Positions 17,940 to 58,492 of a DNA stretch of 64,000 nucleotides are shown here, in pieces. Position 1 is the stretch's first letter. Each line of letters opens with the position of its first letter. The position numbers and the translations under genes were made by a program. Below the pieces are notes generated by a model. That model saw only the letters and a list, made by a program, of their open reading frames with translations. It was not told the origin of the DNA and did no database searches. This DNA is from Clostridia bacterium (lineage in GTDB: Bacteria > Bacillota > Clostridia > Christensenellales > CAAEEZ01): positions 172,873-236,872 of the forward strand of contig CAAEEZ010000016.1 of the NCBI GenBank assembly GCA_900755035.1. Direction: 5' to 3'.

Positions 17940-17944
17940 AAATT

Positions 17945-18050
17945 TACAATTTGGGTAGGGGAAGAGCGGTGCAAGTCCGTCGCAACTATTATTGCCGTAT
18001 AGTCGGAATGCCTACGAGTACTGAATACGAGGACGAAATTATGCTATTAG
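17945..18050 (+). promoter_or_regulatory. Cobalamin (B12) riboswitch aptamer
   Basis: GGGAAgagcGGTGcAAgTCCgtcGCAACTat…GCCgtatAGTCgGAAtGCCtac reproduces the conserved cobalamin core and a B12-box-like AGTCGGAATGCC. Confidence 0.8.
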
Positions 18051-18098: not shown

Positions 18099-18338
18099 AT
18101 GACGAAAGATGAGGCAATAACTTTACTTACTGAAAAATATGCAACACTTGGCAGACTGCCTAAGAAAAGCGATTTTACTGCTACGGAGATAAGCAGAATA
18201 AAAGCGAAGTTAGGGCCGTGGACAAGGGCGCTAGAACAAGCGAACTTAAAAGAAAAATCACCCTTGCACGAAGCGAAAGTCCAAAGAATAAAGCAAAAAA
18301 GAATACTAAATAAAGAGGTAAAAAATGAAGAGAACTAG
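18099..18338 (+). CDS. Small protein with a single homing-endonuclease-associated (HNH-repeat-like) motif
   Basis: 79 aa from the ATG at 18099; …LGRLPKKSDF…LGPWTRALEQANL resembles that repeat as I recall it; the track start at 18063 lies inside the terminator. Confidence 0.5.
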   Translation: MTKDEAITLLTEKYATLGRLPKKSDFTATEISRIKAKLGPWTRALEQANLKEKSPLHEAKVQRIKQKRILNKEVKNEEN

Positions 18339-35897: not shown

Positions 35898-36060
35898 TTT
35901 ATAGCGTTTAAGGTTGCGTATATTGACAATATCGTTGCATGCCTACCTATAATATGATATAATTATGATCATCTAATATTCTATATAAAATCGGTGAGGT
36001 TGTAAAAGGCCTTAAATGTAGAAATTCTATTTGTACATTAAACTCAAAGGAGCACGAATT

Positions 36061-37977: not shown

Positions 37978-37979
37978 TT

Positions 37980-40642: not shown

Positions 40643-42160
40643 CTATTGTAAAAAAACAAAACGCACTCCTAAATATTTGGAAGTGCGTTTTATCTTTGGT
40701 GCCCCAAGGCATTTCAAATCCGAACCAGACGGGGTGCAGTTGAGTTCCGAAAGGAATACTGTTTTTGTTCCGTCCTTGTAGTTGAAGGTAAAGGTTATCT
40801 TATCATCGTAAAGGTATATTGCATTGATAAATCCATCGATTAGCCTTTGTTTACCTTCTTTTGTTGAAATATTCAACTTTTTAAATTTCTCTATTCCAAA
40901 GCGTATTTGCTCTTTCGTAAGAAAGGGTTTTTTAATTTGTTCTTGAACGATAGTTAAATCAAGTTGGTTCTTTTCTTTTTCAAGTTCCGCAAGTCTATCT
41001 TTCGTTGAGTCGAAGATAATCCCTTGCTCAATCGCTGTAATTATGTTTTTAATACGATTTTCAACGTCTTCTAATTGTAAACGCAATCTCGGTAAGCGCG
41101 GATTTTCTTCGCCCTGTAAATCGAAAATCCTATCCACAAGATAATCAATCACGGCTTCGTCGTGAAGAAGCTCCATTGCCTTTTGAACGGCTAAATCTTC
41201 AATCCACAACTTACGTACCGTTTTCTTATCGCAAGTATGCTTTTTAGCGTTTACGCATTTGTAATAGCGGTGGACTTCCTTTTTTCTTCCCGTTCCTGCT
41301 TCACCAACCATAAGCGCGCCACATTTACCGCAGAACAATTTTGTAGTTAAAAGATAATCATCTTCCGCTTTATGACGGGCGGGTGCGTGTTTATTTTGCG
41401 CCATACGACGTTGAACACGCTCAAATAAGTCTTTGCTAACGATAGCAGGCACGGCATCGGGAATTACAATGTCATTATATCTAAATTCGCCTATATACTT
41501 GCGGTTGGTAAGCATATATTGAACGATATTATAAGACATTTTCTTGCCAAGTCTTGTCGTTATTCCTTTTGCATTGAAATGGTTTACAATATCTTTGATA
41601 AGGTAGCCGTCGGCATACATTGTAAAGGCTTCCACAACGATAGGAGCAAGTGTTTGGGCAATAGCGTGTTTTTGTTCTTCGTCTATGTAGTAACCAAAAG
41701 GAATTTGTCCGCCGTTTACTTTCGCTTTTAATGCATTTTCTTTGAGCCCACGCTTAACCTTAACGGAAAGTTCAGCCGAGTAGTATTCCGCCATACCTTC
41801 AAGCATTGATTCAAGAATAATTCCTTCAGGACCTTCGCTAATGTTTTCCTTTGCCGAAACTACTTTAACGCCGTTCTTTTTAAGGATATGTTTGTAATTG
41901 GCAGAATCGTATCTATCACGAGAAAAACGGTCTAATTTCCAAACGATAATCATATTAAAGCAGTGCTTATAACTATCTTTAATCATACGTTGAAAATCGG
42001 GACGATTATCCGAAGTAGCCGTCATCGCACGGTCTATATAGTTTGCAACGACGTCCACACCGATTTTATTCGCAAATTCCAAACACTCACGAAGTTGACC
42101 TTCAATAGATTCTTCACGTTGACTATCCGAAGAATATCGCGCATATATAACTGCTTTCAT
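40643..42160 (-). CDS. Large serine recombinase
   Basis: 505 aa; N-terminal resolvase domain AVIYARYSSDSQ (catalytic Ser), recombinase domain, Cys-rich zinc-ribbon (CGKCG…YYKC…C). The last codons run through a hairpin/T-run at 40650-40691. Confidence 0.9.
   Translation of the reverse strand: MKAVIYARYSSDSQREESIEGQLRECLEFANKIGVDVVANYIDRAMTATSDNRPDFQRMIKDSYKHCFNMIIVWKLDRFSRDRYDSANYKHILKKNGVKVVSAKENISEGPEGIILESMLEGMAEYYSAELSVKVKRGLKENALKAKVNGGQIPFGYYIDEEQKHAIAQTLAPIVVEAFTMYADGYLIKDIVNHFNAKGITTRLGKKMSYNIVQYMLTNRKYIGEFRYNDIVIPDAVPAIVSKDLFERVQRRMAQNKHAPARHKAEDDYLLTTKLFCGKCGALMVGEAGTGRKKEVHRYYKCVNAKKHTCDKKTVRKLWIEDLAVQKAMELLHDEAVIDYLVDRIFDLQGEENPRLPRLRLQLEDVENRIKNIITAIEQGIIFDSTKDRLAELEKEKNQLDLTIVQEQIKKPFLTKEQIRFGIEKFKKLNISTKEGKQRLIDGFINAIYLYDDKITFTFNYKDGTKTVFLSELNCTPSGSDLKCLGAPKIKRTSKYLGVRFVFLQ
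40716..40727. repeat. Direct repeat copy L (aaatccgaacca)
   Basis: Exact 12-mer also present at 55108-55119, where it is the left arm of the hairpin downstream of tRNA-Leu. Confidence 0.5.
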
Positions 42161-43254
42161 TCAGTTTTCTCCTTTATTTTATATTTTACACTTAAATAAT
42201 TAGTAAAATTTTTATGCTCATTTAAGTTGTATTCGGCTTGTAATCGTTCATATACATTTCCTTTCATTATGTCATCAAAGGATATGCCCGCCATAGTTGT
42301 TTTTCCTGTAATCTCTTTTACTTTTTTATCTTTTTTAAGCACTTGTTTCAAAGTTTCAGAACAATAAAAATCTTCTGAATACAAGAAAATCAAATAGTTG
42401 ATTACAGATAATTTATCTTCGCGAGATAAGGCTTTGAACCCTTTATAAAACTTTCTATACCTTTTCTCATTATTGTCAATAAAAAGCATTATCGCCGTTT
42501 TATTTTTCAATGGAAAAACACAAATATATAAGTCTTTCATATGATAATTAGGGTCTTTATTATAAATGTCATTTACGATATTTCCGTCAAAATCAACATA
42601 TAAAGCAATTTGCCCTTGAAAAGCAATTGGAACGGTATAATCAAGTAAATCATAGTAAATTAAATAATATCCGTCATTGTAATTGCTTTTGATTTGTTTT
42701 TTTGCTTTGTTAAAATCCATTAAAAAATCTTTCAAATCAAGCGAATTGACTTCATTCATTTGCGTAAAGCGCGGAGCATCTTTAATTGCTTGCATCAATT
42801 TATATTGTTCTATTTCTACCTTTCGTTTATATATATATTTCAAATTGGATTTTAATGCAATAGCCGCTAAAATACTATGTGAAGGTGTAGCATTGTACAC
42901 GTCAGGATTTTCATATTCTTGAAAGATAGTATTATCACAATCTTTACAAATAATATGAAACGTCCCTGCATTGCCAACACCGCTATCTTCTTTCAGATAA
43001 AACGGAAACTCTATAATGCTATTTACCGTTAAGACCATTCCATCGCTATCTATGTTATGTAAACAAAAAGCGGGGATATTATGAGAGTTGCAAAATGATG
43101 TTACGGATTTTCCACAATACAGACAAGTAGTTCCTTTTGCATTATCACGGGCTTGTTTTATAAGCCTTGACATCTGTTTGTTTACTTCAATAGCATTACC
43201 ATTAAAATTTTTTGATATCCATTCGCTTGTTTTAGCTAAATTGTGTAATTCCAT
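42157..43254 (-). CDS. DUF4238-like protein with N-terminal CxxC…CxxC element
   Basis: 365 aa; CLYCGK…SHNIPAFCLHNI resembles the DUF4238 HY(V/I)PxFYLxNF signature; second pair CKDC; 4-nt overlap (ATGA) with the recombinase gene. Confidence 0.45.
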   Translation of the reverse strand: MELHNLAKTSEWISKNFNGNAIEVNKQMSRLIKQARDNAKGTTCLYCGKSVTSFCNSHNIPAFCLHNIDSDGMVLTVNSIIEFPFYLKEDSGVGNAGTFHIICKDCDNTIFQEYENPDVYNATPSHSILAAIALKSNLKYIYKRKVEIEQYKLMQAIKDAPRFTQMNEVNSLDLKDFLMDFNKAKKQIKSNYNDGYYLIYYDLLDYTVPIAFQGQIALYVDFDGNIVNDIYNKDPNYHMKDLYICVFPLKNKTAIMLFIDNNEKRYRKFYKGFKALSREDKLSVINYLIFLYSEDFYCSETLKQVLKKDKKVKEITGKTTMAGISFDDIMKGNVYERLQAEYNLNEHKNFTNYLSVKYKIKEKTE

Positions 43255-43270
43255 ATTATTTATCTCAAAT

Positions 43271-44020
43271 CTATATTGTTAAACTATACTTGTTGTATAA
43301 TTCGATGAATTGGTCTAAAAATTTACATACCAAATCTCTATCTAAAGCAGTTGATAAAGTTTCCTCGTTTCCTTCAGCATTTTTACTCCAATTATATGAG
43401 CCGTGCATTACATAATCAAAATCTATAATACAAAATTTGTTATGCATCCTATTTTTTCCCCACATTGGAACAGTGATAGTGTCAAATTTCTCTTCTAATT
43501 CAGGCAATCTCCATTTGTTAGATTCTTCGTCTGATGTTATAATTCGCACATTAACACCTGCATCTTTTTTTAATTCAAGTTCACGGATAATATCTTTATC
43601 AGTTATCCACGCAACTGCCGCCCAAATTATATATTTAGCACCTCTTATACCTTGAATAATTGTGTCTTTAATTTCATTAAAATCTACATCATATTCTTTA
43701 TAATCCCAATTTTCGGTTTCTATTGGCTTAGGCTTAATTTGTAATTCGCCAAAGGCATATTGCTCGCTTTCAATATATATGTCTTCAGCTAATCCGTTTA
43801 ATTGATTTTTATATTCTTTTGCATTCTTCAACATAGGGATGGGTACGCGCAAAGCAATATTTTCCCAAAATTGATAACTTTTTTTCGTGAAGTATGATGT
43901 TTTTTCAAAAGTGATAATAGAATTACGAAGGATAGTTAAAATTTCATCTTTATTAGGAAAATCCTCATATTTTACATACTCAATCATAGTTTTCAAGAAT
44001 TGCTTTTCATTGACTATCAT
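43271..44020 (-). CDS. PLD-superfamily (single HKD, Nuc-like) putative nuclease
   Basis: 249 aa; HNKFCIIDFDYVMHGSYNWSKNA matches H-x-K-x4-D-x6-GS-x-N; unassigned N-terminal domain of about 110 aa. Confidence 0.75.
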   Translation of the reverse strand: MIVNEKQFLKTMIEYVKYEDFPNKDEILTILRNSIITFEKTSYFTKKSYQFWENIALRVPIPMLKNAKEYKNQLNGLAEDIYIESEQYAFGELQIKPKPIETENWDYKEYDVDFNEIKDTIIQGIRGAKYIIWAAVAWITDKDIIRELELKKDAGVNVRIITSDEESNKWRLPELEEKFDTITVPMWGKNRMHNKFCIIDFDYVMHGSYNWSKNAEGNEETLSTALDRDLVCKFLDQFIELYNKYSLTI

Positions 44021-44376
44021 TACTTTTGTTCCTCCAACATTTTCTTTAAGGTTTCTTTGAGTTTTGCGTGTGCGTTAGTGCTTGGGTCAAAACACATCTC
44101 GATAAAGTCTTGCATACGGTCAGAATTTTCTAATTTAGGTTGTCCGTAAAGTTTACCTTCGGGGTTGTCCGTTCTACCGAGAAGATAATCCGCCGATACG
44201 TCAAAGTAATCGGCAATCTTAACAAGTACGGGGTAGGACGGCATAATAGAGCCAAGCTCGTAACGAGCGAGAACGGGTTGTTTTACGTCGCCAAGTGCCG
44301 TAGCAAGTTTTGCTTGTGATAACTTTGCTTTTTCTCTTAATGACTTTATTCTATATCCAATAATGTTTTCTTGCAT
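44020..44376 (-). CDS. XRE-family HTH transcriptional regulator
   Basis: 118 aa; …IKSLREKAKLSQAKLATALG…YELG… HTH_3 pattern; its stop codon overlaps the PLD gene start by 1 nt. Confidence 0.8.
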   Translation of the reverse strand: MQENIIGYRIKSLREKAKLSQAKLATALGDVKQPVLARYELGSIMPSYPVLVKIADYFDVSADYLLGRTDNPEGKLYGQPKLENSDRMQDFIEMCFDPSTNAHAKLKETLKKMLEEQK

Positions 44377-44403
44377 ATATACCTCTTGTTATTTTGTTCT
44401 TTA

Positions 44404-45414
44404 CTAACAGTATTTTCGTAAATCTTCTTCTTTTGCACCATAAACTTGTTTTGTTGACGCATTAAATAGTTTTTCATTGTAAGCATCAATAATAGCCGCA
44501 TCTCTAATTATAGTGGTCGTGTTTTCTTTTATGGAATTCTTACAGATAATTGAAAGTTGGGGGGTTATCGGATAAAATAATTCAAAATTATTTATAGTTT
44601 CTCCAATATTATTATAATCAGCGTAAAGATTAATTAATGGAAAATCGCTCGTTATGAAATTTTGCGTTGTTTCATTTTTTATTAAATCTATATAAAAATT
44701 ATTTTTACAAAAGGCAGAAGCTAATATTTGAGTATTAACAACCATCATTAAAGGAAACATTGCTAAAGTGGTATTTTTTAAGCACGAATCTTCAAATTTT
44801 TCAACAGTTTGCTTTATCGAATTCAAAATATTATCCTTACTTCTCCATGTTCTAAGCATTTGAGCTGCAATAAACTCAAAAAAATCATATCTTAAATCTT
44901 CGCCATTATATGTAGAAAGTGTTAAGTTATATAACGCTTTAATTTCCATATCAGAAAAAAGGCATTCATTTGAAAATAGATTATTAAGCATATTAAATTT
45001 TAAAAAATCTGAAAATTGTTCCAATACTGTTGGTCCTTCAAATGGAAATTCTCCTTTATATAATTTATTTAAAAATTTAATGCCATTATTTTCTATAGGA
45101 CATACAAAATTATTTTCGATAAAATCTTTTTGAAATATATCTGAAGCATCTGTTATTTTACTTTTGACTCCAATCAGTTTTTGATTATTCAGCCACTTAT
45201 CAAAATATTGAGTTACTGCCTTTTTATCGCTCTCGTTTATCATGCTAATATCATAACTATATTTTTGGACACCAACATTTTCAAGTGATACATTTTTTAT
45301 AATTTTATTTTCAGCTTTGTAATAACAAACAATATTTCCATTGCTAGAATCTAAATTATCTGTCCAAGGCGATAAATACTTTCTCCAAACTAAGTGTTGT
45401 CGTATTGTTGACAT
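44404..45414 (-). CDS. DUF4238-family protein
   Basis: 336 aa; N-terminal QHLVWRKYLSPW and later FITSDFPL resemble the DUF4238 signature blocks. Confidence 0.5.
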   Translation of the reverse strand: MSTIRQHLVWRKYLSPWTDNLDSSNGNIVCYYKAENKIIKNVSLENVGVQKYSYDISMINESDKKAVTQYFDKWLNNQKLIGVKSKITDASDIFQKDFIENNFVCPIENNGIKFLNKLYKGEFPFEGPTVLEQFSDFLKFNMLNNLFSNECLFSDMEIKALYNLTLSTYNGEDLRYDFFEFIAAQMLRTWRSKDNILNSIKQTVEKFEDSCLKNTTLAMFPLMMVVNTQILASAFCKNNFYIDLIKNETTQNFITSDFPLINLYADYNNIGETINNFELFYPITPQLSIICKNSIKENTTTIIRDAAIIDAYNEKLFNASTKQVYGAKEEDLRKYC

Positions 45415-45458
45415 TTCGCACCTCCATATTTTTTAGATGTTAATTACCATCTTACATT

Positions 45459-45487
45459 ATTATAACCGAAAAGTTTTTAAATGTCAA
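45459..45487 (-). promoter_or_regulatory. Consensus sigma-A promoter for the DUF4238-XRE-PLD operon
   Basis: Minus strand reads TTGACA, 17-nt spacer, TATAAT, about 40 nt upstream of the ATG at 45414. Confidence 0.7.
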
Positions 45488-45519
45488 TACGATATAGGTA
45501 TATTTATAAAAAATAGATA

Positions 45520-45551
45520 TTAAAAACGGCAGATACTTTAATCTACCGTTT
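45520..45551 (-). terminator. Rho-independent terminator ending the Hsp70-like operon
   Basis: Minus strand aacggtaga/tctgccgtt stem (one G-U) followed by TTTTT, 10 nt after the stop. Confidence 0.65.
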
Positions 45552-45560
45552 CAATAAGAT

Positions 45561-47390
45561 TTATTTCCAATTTTTATCTTTGTAAGGAGTATCTTCTACA
45601 CCTTTATCATTGAGTTTTTTAACCATACGGTCTAATGTACCTTTCCACATTTTCTTAAACCATTTTGTTTTACCAAACCATTTTACAAGTGTAGGACTAA
45701 TCGCGTAATATAATTTGATAAAGGCACGACCATACCAAGTAGAGCCAAGAGTGTCATCACGGAAGCGACGTAACGTCCATACTTGCGGGCAATCATATGA
45801 GCCATAAACGCAAGTAGCAACATAACATCCACCACAACAATCGGAAGAACTAGAAGAATAACTTCTTGGATAAGAGTAGGAAGAACGTGATGCTGCTTTA
45901 TTTTTTGCATCTTCGAGTGTATCAGGATACGTTCTATGTGAACCACGTACAGCATCGCATTTTTCCATATAGGTTTTTGCGGTGTAAGAGTTAGCAGTCA
46001 ATAATTTATAAACTTCATCGAAGGTCTTAATGATTTCGCTTTGTAAAATCGTAAGTGCATAATATTTTAGAATATAATTTTTTAGCTCGTCTTGTCTTTT
46101 TTCTATAACGTATATTCCAAGTGCACCCATATTTGAAATGCTTGCGAGTTCTCGATTAAGATTTTCAAATAAGTTTTCAGTTACATTATCAAAACGGGTT
46201 AATGCGATAAGCAAATTAGTAAATAACGTGCGGTAATTTTTTAAACGTTCGGATTTGTAGAGTAAGCGCGTTAAATCATATAAATTTTGAGATACAGACG
46301 TTCCTTTTTTTATCGCAAGAATGCGTTCTCGGTAATAATTGTACCATTCTTCGCCGTTTTTTATTAAGGCGGAAAGTATTTCAAGTATTTCAATGTGTTC
46401 GCATTCGATATCGTTATCTTTAATATAGTCAATAACGCTCGAAACTGAACTCATTTTACTTAGCTCGTAATAAGTGTTTTTTTCAATGTTATCAAATAAT
46501 ATATAAGTAAAACACAGATTTATAAATACGGTACATAAGTGTTCAGCATCTTCGGGATGAAGTTTTTCTAAAAGTTTTGAAAAATTTGCAAAGAATAATG
46601 TGCCGTTTTCATCCACATTATTGGCTAATTGATTACAAAAAGCCTTATATGAATAATAGAACTCTTTATTTTTGAACAAAGAATTGTTTAATCCACAAAC
46701 AAACTCAATACTTGAAGTAAATAAACTTTCATCTTCCAATCTTGATGAAATCGAATCAAGAGAAGTAGCAATAGCATCGGCAAAAGCAGTAACAAATCTT
46801 TTTTTGAGAGAAGTATCCGTTGTCGCACTCAAAACCCTATAAGTCGCATTAACAGTTTTACTATTTAAGCCGTTTACAGACGAATTGATTTCATTTTCTA
46901 TCTCTAACCACAAAGATTCACAGAACGCAGAAAAGATTTCGCCGTTGGCATCCACTTTTGCATAGGTTAAATCTTTTTTCAGTAGCGCAGGAGTCACTAT
47001 CACACTTACAAGTTCATCAAAAACTTTACCGCTTATCTTCAATTTAGATATAGCATAATCAAAATTACGCACCAAATTAATTAATGCAGCTAGTTTCTTT
47101 CGGGAAGAAACTGATGAAGTTATTTCAGTATCAAATACGCTTTCTAATTGTTCAACAGATTTTCTATCTTGAACGTATTTTTCTACTGTATAGAAATCGA
47201 TATCTATGTAAGTCGAAAAAAGTTCTTCAACAAATAATTTTGCATCGCTATTTATTGTTTGAATATGAACCGGCAACTCTTTTCTCAATTCAGGACGAGT
47301 TTGAAATAACTTCATTAACTCGCCTTTTGATAACGATGATGATAACTTAAACTTCTCGAAAAGAGTTTCTCTTTTGAATTGTACTTCCAT
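45561..47390 (-). CDS. 609-aa helical protein with Ser-rich linker and Cys-rich C-terminal module (operon gene 3)
   Basis: No catalytic motif seen; the C-terminal 93 aa read DCCGGCYVATCVYGSYDCPQVWTLRRFRD…GRAFIKLYYAISPTLV… followed by a basic amphipathic tail. Confidence 0.6.
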   Translation of the reverse strand: MEVQFKRETLFEKFKLSSSLSKGELMKLFQTRPELRKELPVHIQTINSDAKLFVEELFSTYIDIDFYTVEKYVQDRKSVEQLESVFDTEITSSVSSRKKLAALINLVRNFDYAISKLKISGKVFDELVSVIVTPALLKKDLTYAKVDANGEIFSAFCESLWLEIENEINSSVNGLNSKTVNATYRVLSATTDTSLKKRFVTAFADAIATSLDSISSRLEDESLFTSSIEFVCGLNNSLFKNKEFYYSYKAFCNQLANNVDENGTLFFANFSKLLEKLHPEDAEHLCTVFINLCFTYILFDNIEKNTYYELSKMSSVSSVIDYIKDNDIECEHIEILEILSALIKNGEEWYNYYRERILAIKKGTSVSQNLYDLTRLLYKSERLKNYRTLFTNLLIALTRFDNVTENLFENLNRELASISNMGALGIYVIEKRQDELKNYILKYYALTILQSEIIKTFDEVYKLLTANSYTAKTYMEKCDAVRGSHRTYPDTLEDAKNKAASRSSYSYPRSYSSSSSDCCGGCYVATCVYGSYDCPQVWTLRRFRDDTLGSTWYGRAFIKLYYAISPTLVKWFGKTKWFKKMWKGTLDRMVKKLNDKGVEDTPYKDKNWK

Positions 47391-48247
47391 TATTTCTCTT
47401 TAACTTCCTTTTTATTGGGGTGTACGTTTATAGTAATTTTTGCTCTTTGGATAATAAGGCTATGATAACGTATTTCCGGTTGAAAAACTTTTACAACTTG
47501 ACCATTGGGTTTCTTTTTATCCTCGATTGTATCCACGGCACCAAAAACTTTCTTTTCTTCATCTGTTAAATCATTATAATTTAACCCTAAATAGTTAGGG
47601 ATATTCATTTCGTTTCTTAATAAAAACTCAATAAATATCTTCTCGTAGAAAAATTTTATTTGTTCAAATATCGGACTTTTATTCTTTTGCTGTTGCACTT
47701 TACAATAAATGTCATATATTTGGTTCGCAAAATCTTTTAATTGTGCGGTTATTTTAATTCTTTCTTCTTGTTTTGCATTTGCTAATTTTTCAACAGAAGG
47801 AAGAAAAGTATTCCCCTCAAATACTATTTTTCTAGAAAAATCTTTTAACGAAATACTTTCAGGCGAATCAATTAATTTTACTGTCCATCTATCACTATTT
47901 TCTTGAAGATAATTTTCTGCTTTAACATTAAAATCTTCGTCTTTTAAAAGAAATAAAATATATAAACGCAAATGTTGAGCATCTACGTCTTTAGGATAAT
48001 ATTCCAAAAACGATATTATTTTTTCATAAGCAGTTACAACTTTGTTTTCCTCTAATAATGTAATGGCCTCATTGTAATTGTTAAAGCGTGAAAAATAAAC
48101 GCTTTCAAATTCCTTTAATGAATAACGGCAATATTTACATTCCGTAGAATTTATGTTGTTATCCGTCCCACATAATGGACATTTATATAGCGTATAGTCG
48201 TTTTTTCGACTAATTGCTTGCGCAGAAAAATATTCAAACTGTCCCAT
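47390..48247 (-). CDS. Zinc-ribbon / helical-repeat protein with GrpE-like C-terminal domain (operon gene 2)
   Basis: 285 aa; CPLCG…CKYC ribbon; C-terminus …PNGQVVKVFQPEIRYHSLIIQRAKITI parallels the GrpE beta-domain (…V-x-QKGY-x-L-x-x-R-x-I-R-x-A-x-V-x-V); its stop overlaps the start of gene 3 (45561-47390) by 1 nt and the gene 1 stop overlaps its own start by 1 nt. Confidence 0.55.
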   Translation of the reverse strand: MGQFEYFSAQAISRKNDYTLYKCPLCGTDNNINSTECKYCRYSLKEFESVYFSRFNNYNEAITLLEENKVVTAYEKIISFLEYYPKDVDAQHLRLYILFLLKDEDFNVKAENYLQENSDRWTVKLIDSPESISLKDFSRKIVFEGNTFLPSVEKLANAKQEERIKITAQLKDFANQIYDIYCKVQQQKNKSPIFEQIKFFYEKIFIEFLLRNEMNIPNYLGLNYNDLTDEEKKVFGAVDTIEDKKKPNGQVVKVFQPEIRYHSLIIQRAKITINVHPNKKEVKEK

Positions 48248-51201
48248 TAGTCTTTGCTCACTCTTCCTTGGAATTTCTTAACTTTATCGCTAATTTCTTT
48301 AATGCCCGTTTGTTCAAGCAACATCATAAGACGTCTTGATTTTTGGATTGCGCGTTCAGCGATATCGTTATATTCGTCGTCCGTTTTTTCTTCAATATTC
48401 TTTATATCTAACGAGTTAAGGAATATAGTTACGTTTTCTATTTCTTGAGAAATAGAATTACGCAAAGAGTAATCGCTTAAAGTAGGAAGAATGCCTTGTG
48501 CATCAGTTATCAAATCGTAAATATGTTTCAAGCATATTGCCATCCAAGTTTTAGGATTTGATTTTATGTTCAAGATAGCTTTCATTCCTAACATATCTTG
48601 ATATCTTTCTTCAGCTTGTTTATAATCTTTTCTACTTAAAGCTCTTTTACCAAAGAACGCGTCGTCTTCAATTTTTGATATGTTAATATCGTCTTGTTGC
48701 GAAGCTAAATCTTTTAATTCTCGTTCTAACTCATCAAAATCTTCTTCAGTTAAGTCGCTAATACTGCTTGGAAGTTCACGAACAAGTGTCTCATACTTAT
48801 TAAGCGCATCCGTATAGTGGTTTTTATCGGAGTTAGCAACGGCTTCATTGAGCTCACGAGTGATATTTTCTTGCCTTGCAACAAATTCGGCTTTTGCTTC
48901 ACCGCGAACGTTTTCAATTTTATCGTAGAATTTTTCTTCAATATCCATAAGGGTGGAGTCATCTATATCTTTTGTTTCTGCATAAACGACTTTACCCTTA
49001 ATTTCTTTATTATTAAGCAATACTTTTAAGGTAACTTTTCCTAATACGTCAATTTCGGTGTTTACAGTTACTCGACTACCGAGTGGAGTATTTTCAGGCA
49101 CGTCTATAATAAGACTATAAATTTCACGATAACCTTCTTTAACGGGGAGAATAATTTGTTCTCGGCTATATTCGTTAATTTTAAAGTTGTGGCTTGCCGA
49201 ACAAGGGAGCGCCTCACCTTTATTTACTAACGGATAATCTTCCGTTTCTTGTCTTTCCAAGTCAACAATTTCTATACGGATGGTTTCGTTTTGGACAGGA
49301 GTAGGCGCAATTAAATTATTTTTTTCTACCGACTCCGTTAAGTTTGCTACCGTATTATTTCCAAAATAGAATTTATATTCTAATTTTTCATACACACCAT
49401 CAATGTCGGCAGAGAAGGTTCCGTCGCCTTGAACCGTTGCTTTAACTTCTTTTTCGTTAGAAATTAATCCAACTGTGTCAACTTGTCCTTTAATAAGTTT
49501 GCCCGATATGTTCATTGTTCCGTCAAACATATAAGGAGCATTGATTTCAACCACAATACCATTTTCCGTATCTTCAAATTTCATAGATTGAGTAGCGGCA
49601 ACGATACCTGCACCGTATCCAACTGCCAAGTCGGGGTCTGCTATAATCAACTCTTTAATCATTCCGCTATCAACAAATTTTTCTTTAACAGCGTTGCGAA
49701 CGTAAGGGATATGGCTTGAGCCACCAACCATTAAAACTCCCGTAATTTCAGAAAGTTGTCTGCCGCTTGCAACAAAAGCATCCAATGCTTTTTGGCATTC
49801 GTTAAAACTGTCAATTACGATTTTATCACGGATAAGTTCTTCAAATTTTGCTCTTGAAAAGTCTTCAATAATAAGGTCAACACCCGAATTGTCTTTGAAC
49901 ACATCGTAATAACTAATAGTATAGGTATCGTTTTGCGAAAGATTTTTCTTAACATTTTCAGCGGCAAGGAGAAGTGCATTATATTTATGTAAATCTTCTT
50001 TTTTAGTTAAATCTAAATCAATATCATATCCCAAATCGTTATTAAGAACATCAATAAAGTAGCGAGCGAGAAGATTATCGAAGTTATCTCCTCCCAAAAA
50101 GTTGTTGCCGGCAGTAGCCAAAACAACGGGTATGTTTTCTATTTTTTCGATAATAGAAACGTCAAACGTGCCACCGCCTAAATCGTAAACCATAAATACA
50201 CCGCTATTCACGTTGTTTTTAACGGTGTAATTTATAGCCGCTGCAGTCGGTTCTTCCAAAAGCATTAAAACTTCTAAACCTGCAAGTTCGCCCGCTTTGC
50301 GTGTAGCATCTTTTTGAGCGATAGAGAAGTAAGCGGGCACGGTAATAACGATTCTATCATACACAACATTTTCAGCTTTTTCCACTTGCTTGTTAAGTAT
50401 TTCCGCACAATATCTTACGATTTCGGCAGAGATTTCTTCAGGAGAATAGTTTTGACCATTCAAAACGGCGGGTTCTTCTTTACCCATCATTCTTTTGATT
50501 GAACGAATTTTTTCAATATGCGGATTGTTTTTAGGCGCAACACCCACTATAAATTTATCGCCTTTCTTAGCGACTAACGACGGAATCGTTTTAAGTTTTC
50601 CGTCTTCGGGACAAAAACTTGCACCGTTAATAAAAACTGAAGGTGTACTGTTTGTTGTTCCTAAATCAAGACCGAACGTTTTGTGAATAATCATTTTATT
50701 TATCTCCTTGTTTTGTTCTTCTAATGGTTTGTTTACTGCGGTATTTATTGCGACGGCTTTACTTTCACAACTTTCACCGATAATTTCTTCAATTTTAGTT
50801 ATAATTAGTTCATCATCATTATTTGGATAACTGCCGTAATTATAATGGGCTTTGTCATCCCAGCTACATAAAGCAATTTGATTTTGTCCTATTGTATATT
50901 CTGCGGTGAAATAATAATTTTGTTCTTTTACTAAAATTATTATATAGGCGCAGTCTGTAATAGAGATAGGCATAGTGGACGTCGTAAATCTATATTTTAG
51001 GGCGTTTAGATTTCCTACCTTAATAAATTCAATTTTATATGAAACAAAATCTGATAGATGCGCTTTTTCAATGGCGGTATCAATAATTTGCGTTGCACCA
51101 AAATTGTTTTTACCTTCGATAATACGGCTTAATAAATCTGAATCATAATTCAACACCATATTTCTTAATAATATGTGTTGAAAATTGTAATAGGCTCTCA
51201 T
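48247..51201 (-). CDS. Hsp70/DnaK-superfamily ATPase with unassigned 169-aa N-terminal domain (operon gene 1)
   Basis: 984 aa; GLDLGTTNS, VITVPAYFS, VYDLGGGTFDVS, MVGGSSHIPY motifs, then a beta-rich SBD-like region and a long helical C-terminus. Confidence 0.85.
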   Translation of the reverse strand: MRAYYNFQHILLRNMVLNYDSDLLSRIIEGKNNFGATQIIDTAIEKAHLSDFVSYKIEFIKVGNLNALKYRFTTSTMPISITDCAYIIILVKEQNYYFTAEYTIGQNQIALCSWDDKAHYNYGSYPNNDDELIITKIEEIIGESCESKAVAINTAVNKPLEEQNKEINKMIIHKTFGLDLGTTNSTPSVFINGASFCPEDGKLKTIPSLVAKKGDKFIVGVAPKNNPHIEKIRSIKRMMGKEEPAVLNGQNYSPEEISAEIVRYCAEILNKQVEKAENVVYDRIVITVPAYFSIAQKDATRKAGELAGLEVLMLLEEPTAAAINYTVKNNVNSGVFMVYDLGGGTFDVSIIEKIENIPVVLATAGNNFLGGDNFDNLLARYFIDVLNNDLGYDIDLDLTKKEDLHKYNALLLAAENVKKNLSQNDTYTISYYDVFKDNSGVDLIIEDFSRAKFEELIRDKIVIDSFNECQKALDAFVASGRQLSEITGVLMVGGSSHIPYVRNAVKEKFVDSGMIKELIIADPDLAVGYGAGIVAATQSMKFEDTENGIVVEINAPYMFDGTMNISGKLIKGQVDTVGLISNEKEVKATVQGDGTFSADIDGVYEKLEYKFYFGNNTVANLTESVEKNNLIAPTPVQNETIRIEIVDLERQETEDYPLVNKGEALPCSASHNFKINEYSREQIILPVKEGYREIYSLIIDVPENTPLGSRVTVNTEIDVLGKVTLKVLLNNKEIKGKVVYAETKDIDDSTLMDIEEKFYDKIENVRGEAKAEFVARQENITRELNEAVANSDKNHYTDALNKYETLVRELPSSISDLTEEDFDELERELKDLASQQDDINISKIEDDAFFGKRALSRKDYKQAEERYQDMLGMKAILNIKSNPKTWMAICLKHIYDLITDAQGILPTLSDYSLRNSISQEIENVTIFLNSLDIKNIEEKTDDEYNDIAERAIQKSRRLMMLLEQTGIKEISDKVKKFQGRVSKD

Positions 51202-51242
51202 TTGTTGTAATCTCCTGAAATTTTTCCTTTTGTTTTTACATT

Positions 51243-51254
51243 GAATTATCTAAT
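51243..51254. repeat. Inverted repeat, left arm (gaattatctaat)
   Basis: Perfect reverse complement of 51422-51433. Confidence 0.6.
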
Positions 51255-51267
51255 ACGTGTACTATAG

Positions 51268-51293
51268 AAAGATCTTTTACATCTATAGATGTA
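51268..51293. promoter_or_regulatory. Adjacent perfect palindromes (operator-like)
   Basis: AAAGATCTTT (51268-51277) is immediately followed by TACATCTATAGATGTA (51278-51293). Confidence 0.4.
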
Positions 51294-51319
51294 TCTAATG
51301 TACGCCTATATGTTTTCGA

Positions 51320-51348
51320 TTGACTAAATCGTAAAAAAGATGTATAAT
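51320..51348 (+). promoter_or_regulatory. Near-consensus sigma-A promoter inside the IR-flanked segment, facing away from the Hsp70-like operon
   Basis: TTGACT (51320-51325), 17-nt spacer, TATAAT (51343-51348) on the plus strand. Confidence 0.55.
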
Positions 51349-51421
51349 ATTATCAGTATTTTTCAAGAAAAAAAGGATTTTGACAATTTTTATCGTATAT
51401 TAAATATAGAGAAGTTCATAG

Positions 51422-51433
51422 ATTAGATAATTC
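51422..51433. repeat. Inverted repeat, right arm (attagataattc)
   Basis: Reverse complement of 51243-51254. Confidence 0.6.
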
Positions 51434-51439
51434 TATGTA

Positions 51440-51470
51440 GAAAAAGTGGCGAGCACGAAACTCGCCACTT
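51440..51470. terminator. Terminator hairpin after the tyrosine recombinase gene (potentially bidirectional)
   Basis: agtggcgag/ctcgccact stem flanked by A5 on one side and T4 on the other. Confidence 0.65.
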
Positions 51471-51479
51471 TTACCATTT

Positions 51480-52391
51480 TTAGAACAAAAACTTACCAAC
51501 GCGGTTCATCATTTCCGTCTTGTGTTCAAGCATAGAGTGAGCGTAGCGTTTTAAGGTTATCGTAGGGTTTTTGTGCCCTAAAATTTCCGATAGCGTTTTA
51601 ATATCCATTCCGCACTCTAAAGCGCGCGTTGCAAACGTATGACGAAGAGAGTGAAAGCCTTTATGCGGTAATTTCAAACGTTTTAATAATAGTTCGAAAC
51701 TCTTTTGATAAGAGCGAACCTGCGCACCATGTACGCGTTCACTACAAACAACGTAGTTTCCGCTTGACGATTTCTTATACTCTCTTAATCGTGAAAGCAG
51801 TTGCTTGGGTAAAGGAATAACACGTTCTGAAAAGTCCGTTTTTGGCGTGTCTATAACCTTAACGTATTTACCGTTTTCCCAACTATCGTGGCAAGATTTA
51901 GAAACAGTTATAATACCTTTTTGTAAATCTACGTCATCCCACGTAAGAGATAGAAGTTCGCCAATACGTAAGCCCGTGTAAAGACAAAGTACCACGCCGA
52001 ACAATTTATTTTTCTTCTTTTCAAAGATATATTGCTCGATTTTTCGTTGCTCTTCTTTAGAAAAACAATCAACTTGCTTTTCACGCTGTTTAGGACGCAC
52101 AATAGCCATTGTAAACTCTTTGTCCGTTACGCCAAGTAATACTGCTCGGCGCAAAGAAGATTTAAGCACGGATATAATGCCGTTTACGGTGTTTGCAGAT
52201 AGACCTTTTTCAGATAAATCCACAGTAAAACGTTGCAAAACGGTTGCCGTTAAATCGTTAAGTTCAAACTCTCCAAGCGCGGGGAGTATATGTAGTTCTA
52301 TTTGCCTTTTATATTTCTTGTACGTTCTAATTTTCGTAGTGGGCTTGACGTACAAAGCAAGCCACTCGTTTAACCAATTTTTATATTTCAA
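51480..52391 (-). CDS. Tyrosine site-specific recombinase (phage-integrase family)
   Basis: 303 aa; core-binding SAM-like N-domain, catalytic Arg (TGLRIGEL), HSLRHTF, LGH, RYAH(S) Tyr; TTG start after ggagg. Confidence 0.9.
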   Translation of the reverse strand: MKYKNWLNEWLALYVKPTTKIRTYKKYKRQIELHILPALGEFELNDLTATVLQRFTVDLSEKGLSANTVNGIISVLKSSLRRAVLLGVTDKEFTMAIVRPKQREKQVDCFSKEEQRKIEQYIFEKKKNKLFGVVLCLYTGLRIGELLSLTWDDVDLQKGIITVSKSCHDSWENGKYVKVIDTPKTDFSERVIPLPKQLLSRLREYKKSSSGNYVVCSERVHGAQVRSYQKSFELLLKRLKLPHKGFHSLRHTFATRALECGMDIKTLSEILGHKNPTITLKRYAHSMLEHKTEMMNRVGKFLF

Positions 52392-52556
52392 TAGTTTACC
52401 TCCGTTTGTGTTTTGCCGTCCCCGTTATAGGGGAACGGCTTAATTATTTTTAACCGTTTTTTTATTTCGGGATACGAAAACGGTCAAAACCCGTCCGCCG
52501 TTCCTTTTTACATTTTACTATTTTCTTTACCTTAATCGGCGGTTATCTCTATGTAA

Positions 52557-52742
52557 TCAACGAGATTCTTTATTTTGTTTTTTATTAAGTTGTAATTTGT
52601 GCCTTTCGGCTTTCCACGCTTCAAACTCCTCTTGCACTTTTCCGTCCTCAAAAAGTTTTTGTATCGCGGGAAGTAATGCTCTTGCGAGCGAGTCAATTTC
52701 ATAGTCCGGTATTCCCGTGGTGTTCTTGCGCTTTCTCGGCAT
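52557..52742 (-). CDS. Small basic mobile-element protein (function unknown, possibly a recombination directionality or accessory factor)
   Basis: 61 aa, MPRKRKNTTGIPDYEIDSLARALLP…; sits between the relaxase and recombinase genes. Confidence 0.5.
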   Translation of the reverse strand: MPRKRKNTTGIPDYEIDSLARALLPAIQKLFEDGKVQEEFEAWKAERHKLQLNKKQNKESR

Positions 52743-52769
52743 CCTCTATAGCGTTTTCCTCCTTCTCGT

Positions 52770-53930
52770 TTATTTGCTCCAAGTATATTCGGAGCGATTT
52801 TCTTTTGTTTGTTCCGTTTGTTCTTGCCGCTTTTCTTTTTCGATTTCCTGCTCGATCTCCCTTAATCGATTACGCGACAGGAGAACGGGCGCGGCGAAAA
52901 GGTCTATGAACGATTGCATTGCCGACGTCGCTTTGAAGAACGTTCTTGCATACGCTTCCGGCTCGTGTTGCCTGACCGCGAGCATAGCGTTCTTGGCAAC
53001 TTCCACTTTCCTCTCAAATCCTTTTGCCTTTTGACATTCTTTGAATAAGTCTCCGTTATCTTTGGCGAGTACTGCGTTCTCGTTTTCAAGCCGCTTGTTC
53101 TCAATGGTCAGAGCGATTACTTGTTCTTTCAATCCTCTTTTGCCGTGGGCAACGTCGCCGTTCTTGGCTTCTTCTAACGCTTGACTGTAATCCGCTTCTT
53201 TGTCTCGCTCAGCAATGATTCTGTCCCTTTCCTTGCGCGCTTGCTCCGTCTGTCGGATCGTCCTGTCAAGATATTCTCTTGCCGTAGCGTTGGCTTCTTT
53301 TAAGTCCTCGTTTTCGGCTCGCGCATCGTCGGTGGCTTGCTTTACGACTTTGTGATAGGTTTTCGGATCGACATGCTTGGCTGTGCTTCCGACTTTACCC
53401 CGTGACAAATTCCACTTCTTACCGACTTCTTCATATACGGCGGTTTGCAATTCCGCTAATTTCCCGTCAAAGTAGTATTTAGCACTCAATCGGTTGTCGG
53501 GGGTGATCGGTACGAAGTTGATATGCAGGTGCGGCGTTGTTTCGTCCTTGTGGACAACGGCGGAGATGATGTTTTCTTCGCCGTATCTCTTCTTGACGAA
53601 GTTCACGCAGTCGGCAAAGAAAGCACGTTCGACTTCCAACGGCATACTGTCGAAGAAATCTTTGTCCGACGTCATCACGAACGATACCATCTTGATCGCG
53701 TCGTCTTTGACTTTCCGTTTCACGCCTGCTTGCCTGATCCGTTGGTTGATAAACTCCGCATAGCCTTTTTCGGGCGGTGGGATCATGTGATAGTTATTCT
53801 TTGTGCGGCTCGTGTCAATCGTTTCCTTTCCGATGCGGACGTAGCCCTCTTGACGTTCGTTCTCCAAAGCGACTTTTACAATATCGCCTTGCGGATATTT
53901 TTTCATGTTCAGCACGATATAAGATATAAT
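52770..53930 (-). CDS. MobV-family (Pre/Mob) relaxase
   Basis: VVHKDETTPHLHINFVPI is the HxDE…PHxH motif. The N-terminus (I)ISYIVLNMKKY parallels MobV MSYxVxRxxK. An AGGAGG sits 5-8 nt upstream of ATT/ATA codons at 53930/53927, so a non-ATG start is likely; the alternative ATG is at 53906. Confidence 0.8.
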   Translation of the reverse strand: MISYIVLNMKKYPQGDIVKVALENERQEGYVRIGKETIDTSRTKNNYHMIPPPEKGYAEFINQRIRQAGVKRKVKDDAIKMVSFVMTSDKDFFDSMPLEVERAFFADCVNFVKKRYGEENIISAVVHKDETTPHLHINFVPITPDNRLSAKYYFDGKLAELQTAVYEEVGKKWNLSRGKVGSTAKHVDPKTYHKVVKQATDDARAENEDLKEANATAREYLDRTIRQTEQARKERDRIIAERDKEADYSQALEEAKNGDVAHGKRGLKEQVIALTIENKRLENENAVLAKDNGDLFKECQKAKGFERKVEVAKNAMLAVRQHEPEAYARTFFKATSAMQSFIDLFAAPVLLSRNRLREIEQEIEKEKRQEQTEQTKENRSEYTWSK

Positions 53931-53963
53931 GGTTTCCTCCTGTAAATTTCGTTTTTTTGTTGC

Positions 53964-54072
53964 GCGAAATAGGTGTGTAGAAACAGTCATCCCGACTTTG
54001 TTCGGTGGACAAAAAGCCTCGCAGAGCCTACGACCAAACAACGTTTGGTGTAGTAGGCTACACCTATTTCGC
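53964..54072. promoter_or_regulatory. Candidate oriT region (13-bp inverted repeat with GTGTGT)
   Basis: gcgaaataggtgt (53964-53976) and acacctatttcgc (54060-54072) are perfect complements. GTGTGT lies next to the left arm, just upstream of the relaxase start. Confidence 0.4.
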
Positions 54073-54230
54073 TTCATCTCGTTTTGCTTGCAATTTGCTT
54101 TCCAAATAGGTCATTTTGCAATCACTTCCACAAGCGTTTAACGACCGCTTGCAAGTCATCCTACAATCATATCAATCACCGTCCTTGTTATATTTGTCCC
54201 TTCACGTAAAAGGGCTGTTTTCCACAGACA

Positions 54231-54262
54231 ACAAAAAATGCCGCTGAATATAGAGCGGCATT
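54231..54262 (-). terminator. Rho-independent terminator
   Basis: atgccgct/agcggcat stem, T6 on the minus strand. Confidence 0.65.
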
Positions 54263-54398
54263 CATACGATAAAAAAGGAAGTCCTATCACAGAAATTCCT
54301 TATTTACAAATATTCAGTTGTGAATGGGGAGAGATTGTTTTACCCTACATAATATAGCCATAACGGCGTTAAAAAATCGTACCCCCTGTAAAAATGAC

Positions 54399-54986
54399 CT
54401 AATTTTCTCCGAAAAGCGCCTTTAACAAGCGCAGTTCAAGCGTTTCTTCTTGGGTTCGTTTCAGAAGTTTGTGCTGTTCCTTTTTGCGCTTTCGCGCCTC
54501 TTTGCGTCTCAGGCGTTTTCGTTCTTTTCTCGCTTCCATTGCTTGCTGATGCAATTTTTCAAGGTTATCTTCTGCTTTCAGAATAAGTTTACGGACGGCT
54601 CCTTCGGTAACGCCCATCTCATCGGCAATACGGACTTTTTTCATATTCAAATACTTGAACATAAAATACGCTTGCGCTTGGCGCGGAGTCAGTTTTGCTT
54701 CTAATCTACGTTGCTGACGGTCGAGCCTTTCTTGCTCCAAGCGTTCGTTCTCTGCATCACGCTCGGCTTCTTCCTGTTTCTCCCAAATCACTTCAATATC
54801 CTCATCTGGATCGGGGAAGTCAAAGCCGTCTTCCAACATTTTACTCAAAGAAACCTGCCGCCGTGTTTCTTTGCGATTGACTTTTTTCTCGTATTTTTCT
54901 ATTTCCGCAAAAACTTCGGCAACGTCATCTTCGACTTCGATATTTTCTATATGCCCATCGGCAAATTCGTAAGTAATTGTTTTCAT
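54399..54986 (-). CDS. Sigma-70 region-4-like HTH protein of the mobilisation module
   Basis: …LTPRQAQAYFMFKYLNMKKVRIADEMGVTEGAVRKLILKA…; the ATG at 54986 lies 7 nt after a -10 box, so the mRNA is probably leaderless. Confidence 0.65.
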   Translation of the reverse strand: MKTITYEFADGHIENIEVEDDVAEVFAEIEKYEKKVNRKETRRQVSLSKMLEDGFDFPDPDEDIEVIWEKQEEAERDAENERLEQERLDRQQRRLEAKLTPRQAQAYFMFKYLNMKKVRIADEMGVTEGAVRKLILKAEDNLEKLHQQAMEARKERKRLRRKEARKRKKEQHKLLKRTQEETLELRLLKALFGEN

Positions 54987-54992
54987 AGTTGT

Positions 54993-55021
54993 ATTATACC
55001 ACAAAAGTGTGCAAATTTCAA
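54993..55021 (-). promoter_or_regulatory. Strong sigma-A promoter (extended -10) giving a probable leaderless transcript
   Basis: Minus strand TTGAAA, 17-nt spacer ending in TGg, TATAAT, then acaactATG. Confidence 0.6.
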
Positions 55022-55107
55022 TCCTTAATGCCGATAAACACGCAAAAACGAAAAAAGCGACGGAACGTGAATCCCGCCGCTCTTTGTGCTTATTTTAGTA
55101 TAAAAGT

Positions 55108-55119
55108 AAATCCGAACCA
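55108..55119. repeat. Direct repeat copy R (aaatccgaacca)
   Basis: Identical to 40716-40727. Confidence 0.5.
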
Positions 55120-55150
55120 CTCACTCGTAACGAATACTTGGTTCGGATTA
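55108..55150 (-). terminator. Hairpin downstream of tRNA-Leu
   Basis: aatccgaacca / tggttcggatt 11-bp stem with a 19-nt loop; only a short T-run follows on the minus strand. Confidence 0.4.
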
Positions 55151-55158
55151 TACTGACT

Positions 55159-55244
55159 TGGTGCGGATAACAGGACTTGAACCTGCACGACCTAGGGTCA
55201 TAAGATCCTGAATCTTACGCGTCTGCCTATTCCGCCATATCCGC
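55159..55244 (-). tRNA. tRNA-Leu (anticodon CAG)
   Basis: 86 nt; acceptor GCGGATA/TATCCGC, anticodon loop TTCAGGA, long variable arm (class II), T-loop GGTTCAAGTCC, encoded CCA. Confidence 0.9.
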
Positions 55245-57865: not shown

Positions 57866-58492
57866 AACCTCTTAAATTCCTTATTTTTTATCGTAAGTAT
57901 AACAAAAGAAATGTAAAGAAAAGGTAAAATTTTGCGTATTTTGCAAAATCTTCGTATTTAATTTGTAAAATATTCGTTTGGTAAAACGATGTTGAATTGC
58001 TAAAACAAATACGGAAAATAATATTAAATTAAAATTAAATATTAAAAATAGTATCATAAATGATACAACTACGTGTTGACATTAAAAAATCTAAGGTGTT
58101 TAATTTAATAAACGCAATTAATAAATTGACAAACAAGATATAGTTGATATATAATAAACCCGAACAAATACATAATACATAAACTTACTGTTACGTTTAG
58201 GGGTAATAAGTATGCTAAATATGAATTGTTTCGAAAAAAAATATAAAATAGACGTAACAAAATAGAAAATAAATACAAAATAACGTGAAATTAATAAAAA
58301 TATAAATTTTGTAAAAAATACAAAAATTTGAAATTGGCACAAAAAAATAGAGAACATTGTTTACAATAGTTTACTCGCGCGATTATATAGTGATATTATA
58401 AATAATAATAAAACATCAAAATTATGAAATGTTAATTTAATATTGCTAAATCACCGTGTGAGTGAAAGATAAATAAAATAGGTGATGATAAA

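Follow-up and report, generated by a model that had tools for sequence, protein, structure and literature searches.

A probable promoter-inversion switch upstream of an Hsp70-like operon on a mobilizable element of gut Clostridia

Results

Organization of the locus

The stretch of DNA analysed here (the window, 64 kb in full) belongs to an uncultured gut Christensenellales-like Clostridium. A tyrosine recombinase gene and a three-gene operon that begins with the gene of an Hsp70-like protein, all on the minus strand, are separated by an intergenic region of 278 bp. This region contains a short segment, bordered by inverted repeats, that carries a predicted promoter:

45561-48247, minus strand: second and third genes of the operon, 285 aa and 609 aa
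48247-51201, minus strand: Hsp70-like protein, 984 aa, first gene of the operon
51237-51261, plus strand: cargo-proximal core-type site, TACATTGAAT-TATC-TAATACGTGTA, containing the perfect core 51243-51254
51243-51254: left 12-bp repeat, GAATTATCTAAT, perfect core
51255-51421: invertible interior, 167 bp, reverse-complemented in 6 of 26 contigs that cover both flanks
51320-51348, plus strand: predicted sigma-70-type promoter, TTGACT-17-TATAAT, with 11 of 12 consensus matches
51415-51439, minus strand: recombinase-proximal core-type site, TACATAGAAT-TATC-TAATCTATGAA, containing the perfect core 51422-51433
51422-51433: right 12-bp repeat, the reverse complement of GAATTATCTAAT
51442-51472: hairpin, predicted bidirectional intrinsic terminator (A-run, 12-bp GC-rich stem, T-run)
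51480-52391, minus strand: tyrosine recombinase, 303 aa, with a TTG start, a GGAGG ribosome-binding site, a SAM-like N-terminal domain and a catalytic domain

If mismatches are allowed, the repeat arms extend to 31 nt with 81% complementarity (51233-51263 and 51413-51443). The TTGACT-17-TATAAT site is the top promoter-like match in the interval 50500-53000. In the window orientation it is aimed at the recombinase gene and away from the Hsp70-like operon; once the segment is flipped it is directed at the operon, its -10 element lying 126 nt from the ATG. This promoter, predicted from the consensus, faces the operon in the flipped state only. No comparable minus-strand promoter for the operon was found in the same interval, the best candidates (one within the segment and one within coding sequence) showing 9 of 12 matches, in line with what the initial annotation had noticed. 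The Hsp70-like gene is preceded by an AGGAG ribosome-binding site (51212-51216), 10 nt upstream of its ATG. The hairpin on the other side of the segment comprises 12 pairs with a folding energy of -18.3 kcal/mol (z = -5.5). No RNA family was found in the switch or in the leader with Rfam, at either gathering or permissive thresholds, and the sub-threshold matches in the switch region are driven by the terminator hairpin. The possibility that the intergenic region holds an att site of a smaller element was rejected, as no tRNA-derived direct repeats are present and the true element ends map elsewhere.

The repeats with their 167-bp interior, the promoter pointing away from the operon and the adjacent 303-aa recombinase are all present as initially annotated, and the operon start given as position 51201 corresponds to the ATG at 51199-51201 of the minus strand. 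The hairpin described beyond the right repeat also exists, but its coordinates are 51442-51472 and not 51440-51470.

The 12-bp repeat alone is weak evidence and is not significant window-wide. In first-order Markov simulations, carried out for the whole window and for the 278-bp intergenic region, perfect 12-mer inverted repeats with 50-400 bp spacing are expected at a mean of 4.2 matching positions per 64 kb, which bears out the earlier remark that such a match is only modestly significant; 11 matching 12-mer positions, forming 6 distinct repeat pairs, are observed in the window. The chance of such a repeat within the 278-bp intergenic region is ~0.009. The significance of the switch thus derives from the comparative evidence given below and not from the repeat itself.

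Recombination sites and the tyrosine recombinase

When the arms are compared across loci, every repeat arm proves to be a complete palindromic core-type recombination site, composed of two inverted ~10-bp half-sites around an asymmetric centre, TTATCTA, common to both sites. The perfectly identical 12 bp cover this centre, and identity at the site centre is required for strand exchange. Two half-sites around a short centre are the design used by simple tyrosine recombinases, e.g. Cre and XerC/D. Of the two inner half-sites, one is as a rule degenerate and reads …CCGTG or …ACGTG in place of …CTATG. No further copies of the switch site were found in the 64-kb window.

The recombinase scores 101.5 bits against PF00589 (cut-off 27.1), and its catalytic residues R142, K184, H247, R250, H273 and Y283 are invariant in 34 homologues. 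The comparison with a fim-type phase switch made in the initial annotation holds for the layout but not for the enzyme, which falls outside the FimB/FimE family (NCBIfam NF007371, 24.8 bits against a cut-off of 222). Assignment to the Xer equivalogs was also rejected (XerA 99.4 bits against 220, XerC 81.9 against 335, XerD 64.9 against 330). From its position and its intact catalytic site, we infer that the adjacent tyrosine recombinase is the invertase catalysing the flip.

A small basic protein of 61 aa is encoded at 52557-52742, between the relaxase and recombinase genes. It has no family match. Proteins with 77-80% identity to it are encoded upstream of many close recombinase homologues, and with 46-52% identity in some loci with no detectable relaxase; it could be an accessory or directionality factor.

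The mobilizable element

The locus lies within a larger unit, the ends of which were mapped:

40697-55158, minus strand: integrative mobilizable element, 14.5 kb, carrying the switch
40643-42160, minus strand: large serine recombinase, its 3' end spanning the right element/host junction
55159-55244, minus strand: tRNA-Leu(CAG), its 3' end (...CCGCACCA) forming the left junction of the element

The left junction reads …CCGCACCA/AGTCAG… and the right junction …GGGGCACCA/AAGATAAAACGC… (…GGGGCACCA/AAGAT…), after which the host tRNA terminator resumes. The same element was also found at a second tRNA and at a non-tRNA site, giving three left flanks, and all of the targets end in CCGCACCA. Its genes encode a sigma-like HTH protein, a MobV relaxase (165.5 bits against the NCBIfam cut-off of 100), the 61-aa protein, the tyrosine recombinase with the switch, the Hsp70-like triad, a DUF4238 protein, an Xre-type HTH protein, a PLD nuclease, a 365-aa protein and the large serine recombinase; no type IV secretion genes were seen among its ORFs. 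The MobV relaxase, the terminal serine recombinase, the mapped ends, the occurrence at more than one insertion site and the lack of type IV secretion genes in the ORF set together identify 40697-55158, at the level of its gene content and boundaries, as an integrative mobilizable element. No similarity was found between the element ends and the switch sites. Since the serine recombinase gene lies on the right junction and the element ends are unlike the switch sites, integration and excision are most likely carried out by the serine recombinase, and inversion would fall to the tyrosine recombinase.

One short derivative, L097 (ERR12943776_19520), joins the window segments 55227-54058, 52551-52119, 49508-49167 and 46107-40697, so that the serine-recombinase backbone is retained and the relaxase, the switch and the Hsp70 module are largely lost. 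Either decay of the copy or chimeric assembly may account for this structure.

Several features of the surrounding DNA were recorded. To the right of the element, the window has a Type III restriction-modification system (36031-40565), whereas in other host strains (L095:10896-12894 and L096:9464-11462) its place is taken by a split tyrosine-recombinase gene beside a Type I hsdS gene (Methylase_S), which could be an hsdS shufflon. A 627-bp AT-rich region (57866-58492, GC ~28%) upstream of a 1471-aa surface protein with MBG and Listeria-Bacteroides repeats contains AT-rich inverted repeats of 12-13 bp (58021/58432 and 58022/58099); no recombinase gene lies next to it, nothing in it matches the switch site, and a single comparable contig was available. 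An AdoCbl-II (cobalamin) riboswitch match (38.7 bits, gathering threshold 36.5) is located at 17942-18021, upstream of the ORF at 18325-19995.

The Hsp70-like operon

Residues 174-537 of the first protein of the operon form a DnaK-type nucleotide-binding domain, and no domain was assigned to the regions on either side. The start and stop codons of genes 2 and 3 overlap, and the two partners are translationally coupled. Judged from its sequence, the 285-aa protein may have a Cys-rich motif at its N-terminus; the 609-aa protein has a CFI-box-CTERM domain, which is the sole family match for either partner. Searches with PADLOC, Pfam, PHROGs, NCBIfam and PDB sequences gave no function for these two proteins, and a literature search on the CFI-box-CTERM domain found no paper. 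PADLOC-DB v2 gave no matches for the Hsp70-like, 285-aa and 609-aa proteins or for the DUF4238 protein. In CoCoNuT/McrBC systems the Hsp70-like protein CnuD is associated with the McrB GTPase and McrC (DUF2357) (PMC11090510); this identity was rejected for the present operon, as neither McrB nor McrC was detected with Pfam and NCBIfam in the Hsp70-like protein or in the other ORFs of the element.

The three-gene arrangement is conserved in distant homologues. In three contigs (L118-L120, e.g. L118:5704-16466) a 43%-identical Hsp70-like homologue is encoded in a triad of the same arrangement (821, 272 and 605 aa). An AAA ATPase gene comes before this triad and BrxA, BrxB and BrxC follow directly downstream; the triad is part of a conjugative element with relaxase, VirB4-like and TraG-like genes. 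Judged by this gene context, the Hsp70-like triad is a conserved module of defence-type neighbourhoods, borne by mobile elements; a role in conflict or defence is a hypothesis only.

A family of related cassettes

A scan over one genome per species gave 79 loci with recombinases 53-97% identical to that of the window, all in uncultured gut Clostridia (Christensenellaceae, 'Candidatus Scatosoma', Clostridia or CAG-727), and 75 of them were usable. With a threshold of at least 16 of 20 complementary positions, an inverted-repeat pair is present in ~55 of the 75, located 10-110 bp (typically 40-65) past the recombinase stop codon and flanking 93-170 bp; in the other ~20 no pair was found at this threshold. 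The arms are variations on CATAGA(A/T)TA…TAATCTATG. The segment interior nearly always contains a TTGACx-17-TAxAAT promoter; the best one is directed toward the recombinase in 41 loci and toward the cargo in 7. In ~39 of the 55 loci the stretch from the stop codon to the proximal site contains a GC-rich hairpin bracketed by A- and T-runs (scored as hairpin present or absent, the A- and T-runs pairing into the stem).

A same-strand ORF typically starts 30-130 nt past the distal site, and across the family these cargo ORFs have no other evident promoter. The cargo is highly variable. It consists mostly of very large surface proteins (with BspA-type LRR, Listeria-Bacteroides repeats, MBG, Big_2, GLUG or pilin-like N-termini), along with SPFH/zinc-ribbon proteins, a HerA/mad8-like ATPase, a helicase, a radical-SAM/SPASM enzyme, an ABC transporter and a LytTR regulator. 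In the sister elements L019, L023, L038 and L086 the Xre gene is 97-99% identical and the genes between the switch and Xre are different, which indicates that the switch fronts a slot for variable cargo.

These data bear on the question of whether the tyrosine recombinase is mainly the integrase of the element, with inversion performed by another enzyme in trans or arising as a side reaction. The closest relative with a solved structure is indeed an integrase, that of the conjugative transposon Tn1549 (Int, E = 2.6e-21), the top PHROG match is 'integrase', the gene is placed between the MobV relaxase and 61-aa protein on one side and the cargo on the other, and insertion at tRNA 3' ends, as shown by the element, is typical of tyrosine integrases. 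Set against this, the recombinase-plus-repeat cassette is still found where Mob, the 61-aa protein and the serine recombinase are missing, and the repeat sequences covary with the recombinase lineage. The dissimilarity of element ends and switch sites, with the serine recombinase gene overlapping the right junction, also speaks for a separate integrase, as does L097, possibly decayed or chimeric, which keeps the backbone and serine recombinase without most of the tyrosine recombinase and switch. We therefore regard a primarily integrative role as unlikely, and continue with the tyrosine recombinase as the presumed invertase; in view of its Tn1549 Int relationship and the 61-aa protein encoded just upstream, it may still have some part in element mobility.

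Both orientations in public assemblies

Public assemblies, which are consensus contigs with one orientation each, were used as a substitute for PhaseFinder. The contigs, mostly from human-gut metagenomes, were found by exact-protein look-ups of the Hsp70-like protein and the recombinase, and the sample was widened by look-ups of three variant Hsp70-like proteins (85-93% identity). For the element and its 85-93% variants, 26 independent contigs cover both flanks. The window orientation (OFF) is present in 20 of them (L001/L005, which is the window's own, L004, L006, L009-L013, L101-L105, L107-L110, L112, L114 and L115), a count that is partly biased by the retrieval of some contigs via an exact match to the intact recombinase protein, and the flipped orientation (ON) in 6 (L002, L003/L008, L007, L042, L106 and L111). 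One additional contig, L113, covers the distal flank only and has the window orientation. An exact-pattern scan for the segment in the JGI metagenome collection gave no match.

In L002, L003/L008 and L007 the flanks are collinear with the window and 99.8-100% identical to it, and the stretch between the repeats is reverse-complemented. The alignment of the flipped contigs places both junctions at the 12-bp core GAATTATCTAAT, with exactly 51255-51421 inverted. The prediction that inversion of this interval would aim the promoter at the operon is thus matched by a flip that is found in independent assemblies. In the 85-93% variants the segment is ~92% identical and the 12-bp core unchanged.

Two other perfect inverted repeats of the element were used as controls. 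The 14-bp pair at 47114-47127/47302-47315, within the 609-aa gene, is collinear in 14 of 14 contigs, and its candidacy as an intragenic inverton was rejected on this basis. The 13-bp pair at 53964-53976/54060-54072 shows no flip in 10 contigs; its arms lie on either side of the MobV relaxase start, and it may belong to an oriT.

Two of the ON contigs carry a damaged recombinase gene. In L042 (JAAYHP010000636.1, binned as 'Lysinibacillus sp.'; 1150-1560), a diverged copy, a ~120-bp deletion extends over the end of the recombinase gene from codon 288, including the catalytic tyrosine in the RYAH context of Tyr283, and over the terminator and the proximal site. The 285-aa and 609-aa partners of this copy are only 68% and 45% identical to those of the window. 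In L002 (2835-3746) a 1-nt deletion in a T-run (TTT to TT) shifts the recombinase frame at ~codon 135, which could be a real mutation or a sequencing or assembly error. The recombinase is intact in the four other ON contigs. By their sequences, L042 and L002 look like natural locked-ON derivatives.

It could be argued that the main role of the switch lies in controlling the recombinase, or in producing a small RNA, and not in serving the Hsp70-like operon: the commonest orientation faces the 3' end of the recombinase gene, and an RNA of ~125 nt is predicted from it. A strong predicted bidirectional terminator stands, however, between the promoter and the recombinase gene, and no Rfam family reaches threshold in the region. 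The family-wide feature is a same-strand cargo ORF just past the distal site with no promoter of its own in evidence, and the apparent locked-ON derivatives keep the promoter-to-cargo arrangement. Control of the recombinase or of a small RNA as the main purpose is thus distinctly improbable, and the operon is the more natural target of the promoter.

A slightly poorer case can be made for fixed historical rearrangements, in which the two orientations would mark lineages with no active switch; the use of consensus assemblies with a single orientation per contig leaves room for it. Both states are nevertheless present in each of three diverged sub-lineages, and L002 (ON) and L009 (OFF) have opposite states at a common insertion site in almost identical DNA, so that lineage by itself does not account for orientation. 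Flipping is seen in sister cassettes with other cargo too, with collinear flanks (L018 compared with L035 and L022, L036 with L041, and probably L025 with L086). Five contigs (L109, L110, L113, L116 and L117) stop at the repeats or at most 45 nt from them, L113 at the inner edge of the proximal core and L116 at the distal core exactly; such breaks are the pattern expected from mixed orientations in one sample, and are only suggestive. Finally, the site architecture and an intact recombinase are conserved over 53-97% identity. Fixed rearrangement is accordingly a highly improbable account of the two states, and we favour an active switch.

Assembly artefacts at the inverted repeats, which can confuse assemblers and at which several contigs end, are hardly credible as the source of the flipped contigs: the 12-bp perfect repeat and the imperfect arms of ~22-31 bp are shorter than the k-mers in contig names (k127, k141) and probably than typical assembler k-mers in general, so that the interior should be placed unambiguously and misassembly is unlikely, each state is found among records of different origin (k127/k141-named, NODE-named, Logan and scaffold), and the control repeats of 13-14 bp never flip.

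Discussion

The region between the recombinase gene and the Hsp70-like operon is, on the comparative sequence evidence, very probably a promoter-inversion phase switch (inverton), which probably turns the three-gene operon on and off. We infer that the predicted promoter is the functional promoter of the operon and that switching is ongoing and reversible within a population. In the proposed mechanism, the tyrosine recombinase would exchange strands within the shared 12-bp core and thereby flip the 167-bp segment. In the OFF state, which is that of the window, the promoter would fire toward the recombinase gene, and the bidirectional terminator would end the transcript at ~125 nt. The same terminator would stop read-through from the recombinase gene, and because this read-through is blocked, the Hsp70-like operon would be left with no recognisable promoter. 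In the ON state the promoter would be directed toward the operon, giving a leader of ~119 nt that includes the cargo-proximal site and the AGGAG ribosome-binding site. The recombinase, terminator and switch would act as a portable cassette in front of variable cargo, here within a mobilizable element.

The promoter points toward the recombinase in most copies of this element and in most loci of the family, and this predominance suggests that the switch is usually OFF in vivo. Alternatively, the excess of this orientation could reflect a directional bias caused by the asymmetric half-sites.

A wider proposal is offered more tentatively. The recombinase, terminator and invertible promoter may constitute a portable 'phase-variable expression slot' that has spread in uncultured gut Christensenellales-like Clostridia, on chromosomes and, as a cargo slot, on a family of serine-recombinase/MobV elements. 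Here it would place the Hsp70-like triad, possibly an uncharacterised conflict or defence system, under bet-hedging ON/OFF control, with the OFF state prevailing and occasional locked-ON derivatives. Taken as a whole, this proposal is one that we would sooner doubt than assert.

The locus would place a phase switch in an abundant, uncultured lineage of gut Clostridia, for which none is described in the literature searched. With a defined site and recombinase family, sequence alone suffices to predict dozens more switches, most of them placed before genes of giant surface proteins. A mobilizable element could in this way carry cargo under stochastic ON/OFF control, which would cut the burden of costly cargo and aid the persistence of the element. 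The uncharacterised Hsp70-like triad, which appears to be mostly switched off, is a lead for functional study.

Comparison with known systems

The layout resembles that of E. coli fimS with FimB/FimE, in which a short segment flanked by inverted repeats carries the promoter of the adjacent operon, a tyrosine recombinase gene lies next to it, and ON/OFF phase variation shows an OFF bias. The fimS segment is longer (314 bp, compared with 167 bp here) and is served by two recombinases, whereas a single one, outside the FimB/E family, is encoded here. Further differences from fimS are that the arms are complete palindromic core sites, that the recombinase gene is insulated by the putative bidirectional terminator, and that the switch lies on a mobilizable element.

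The RecV switches of Clostridioides difficile (flgB, cwpV and others) employ a tyrosine recombinase and invertible elements of ~150-200 bp in operon leaders. The likeness extends to the Clostridium-class host, the type of recombinase and the small size of the invertible element. RecV acts in trans on several unlinked switches, some of them through leader or terminator effects and not through a promoter; the present system, compared with RecV by description, has a dedicated recombinase encoded in cis, and the 64-kb window contains only one pair of sites. The Mpi- and Tsr-controlled promoters of Bacteroides are, like fimS and the RecV switches, classical cases of promoter inversion.

The closest conceptual precedent is found in the ICEs of Bacteroidales, where an invertase and an invertible promoter are likewise situated in a mobile element and directly followed by a region of high variability (IP-ARG classes; PMC8748976). 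In Bacteroides fragilis, tyrosine recombinases of the Tsr15/Tsr16 type are encoded beside phase-variable surface-structure operons (PMC11761130), and there too the switch is adjacent to its recombinase. The present case differs from both in its host, which belongs to Bacillota (Christensenellales-like) and not to Bacteroidota, and in its sigma-70-type promoter (TTGACx-17-TAxAAT). The carrier is a MobV mobilizable element with a serine-recombinase backbone and not an ICE, and the cargo is the Hsp70-like triad in place of the glycan-synthesis or resistance genes of the Bacteroidales systems.

Recombinase-linked inversion is also shared with the hsdS invertons of Type I restriction-modification systems, which are reported to have an adjacent tyrosine recombinase and to generate heterogeneity at a defence-type locus in host-associated bacteria (PMC7672463). 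Coding segments of hsdS are shuffled in that case, whereas a promoter would be flipped here, and the cargo is no recognised defence system. No paper on invertons of Christensenellales was found in the literature searched, and large-scale predictors, e.g. DeepInverton (PMC11602134), may list such loci. In general, the layout and logic of the switch are known, being those of classical promoter inversion, and what is added here is a well-supported example together with its extension to the level of a family.
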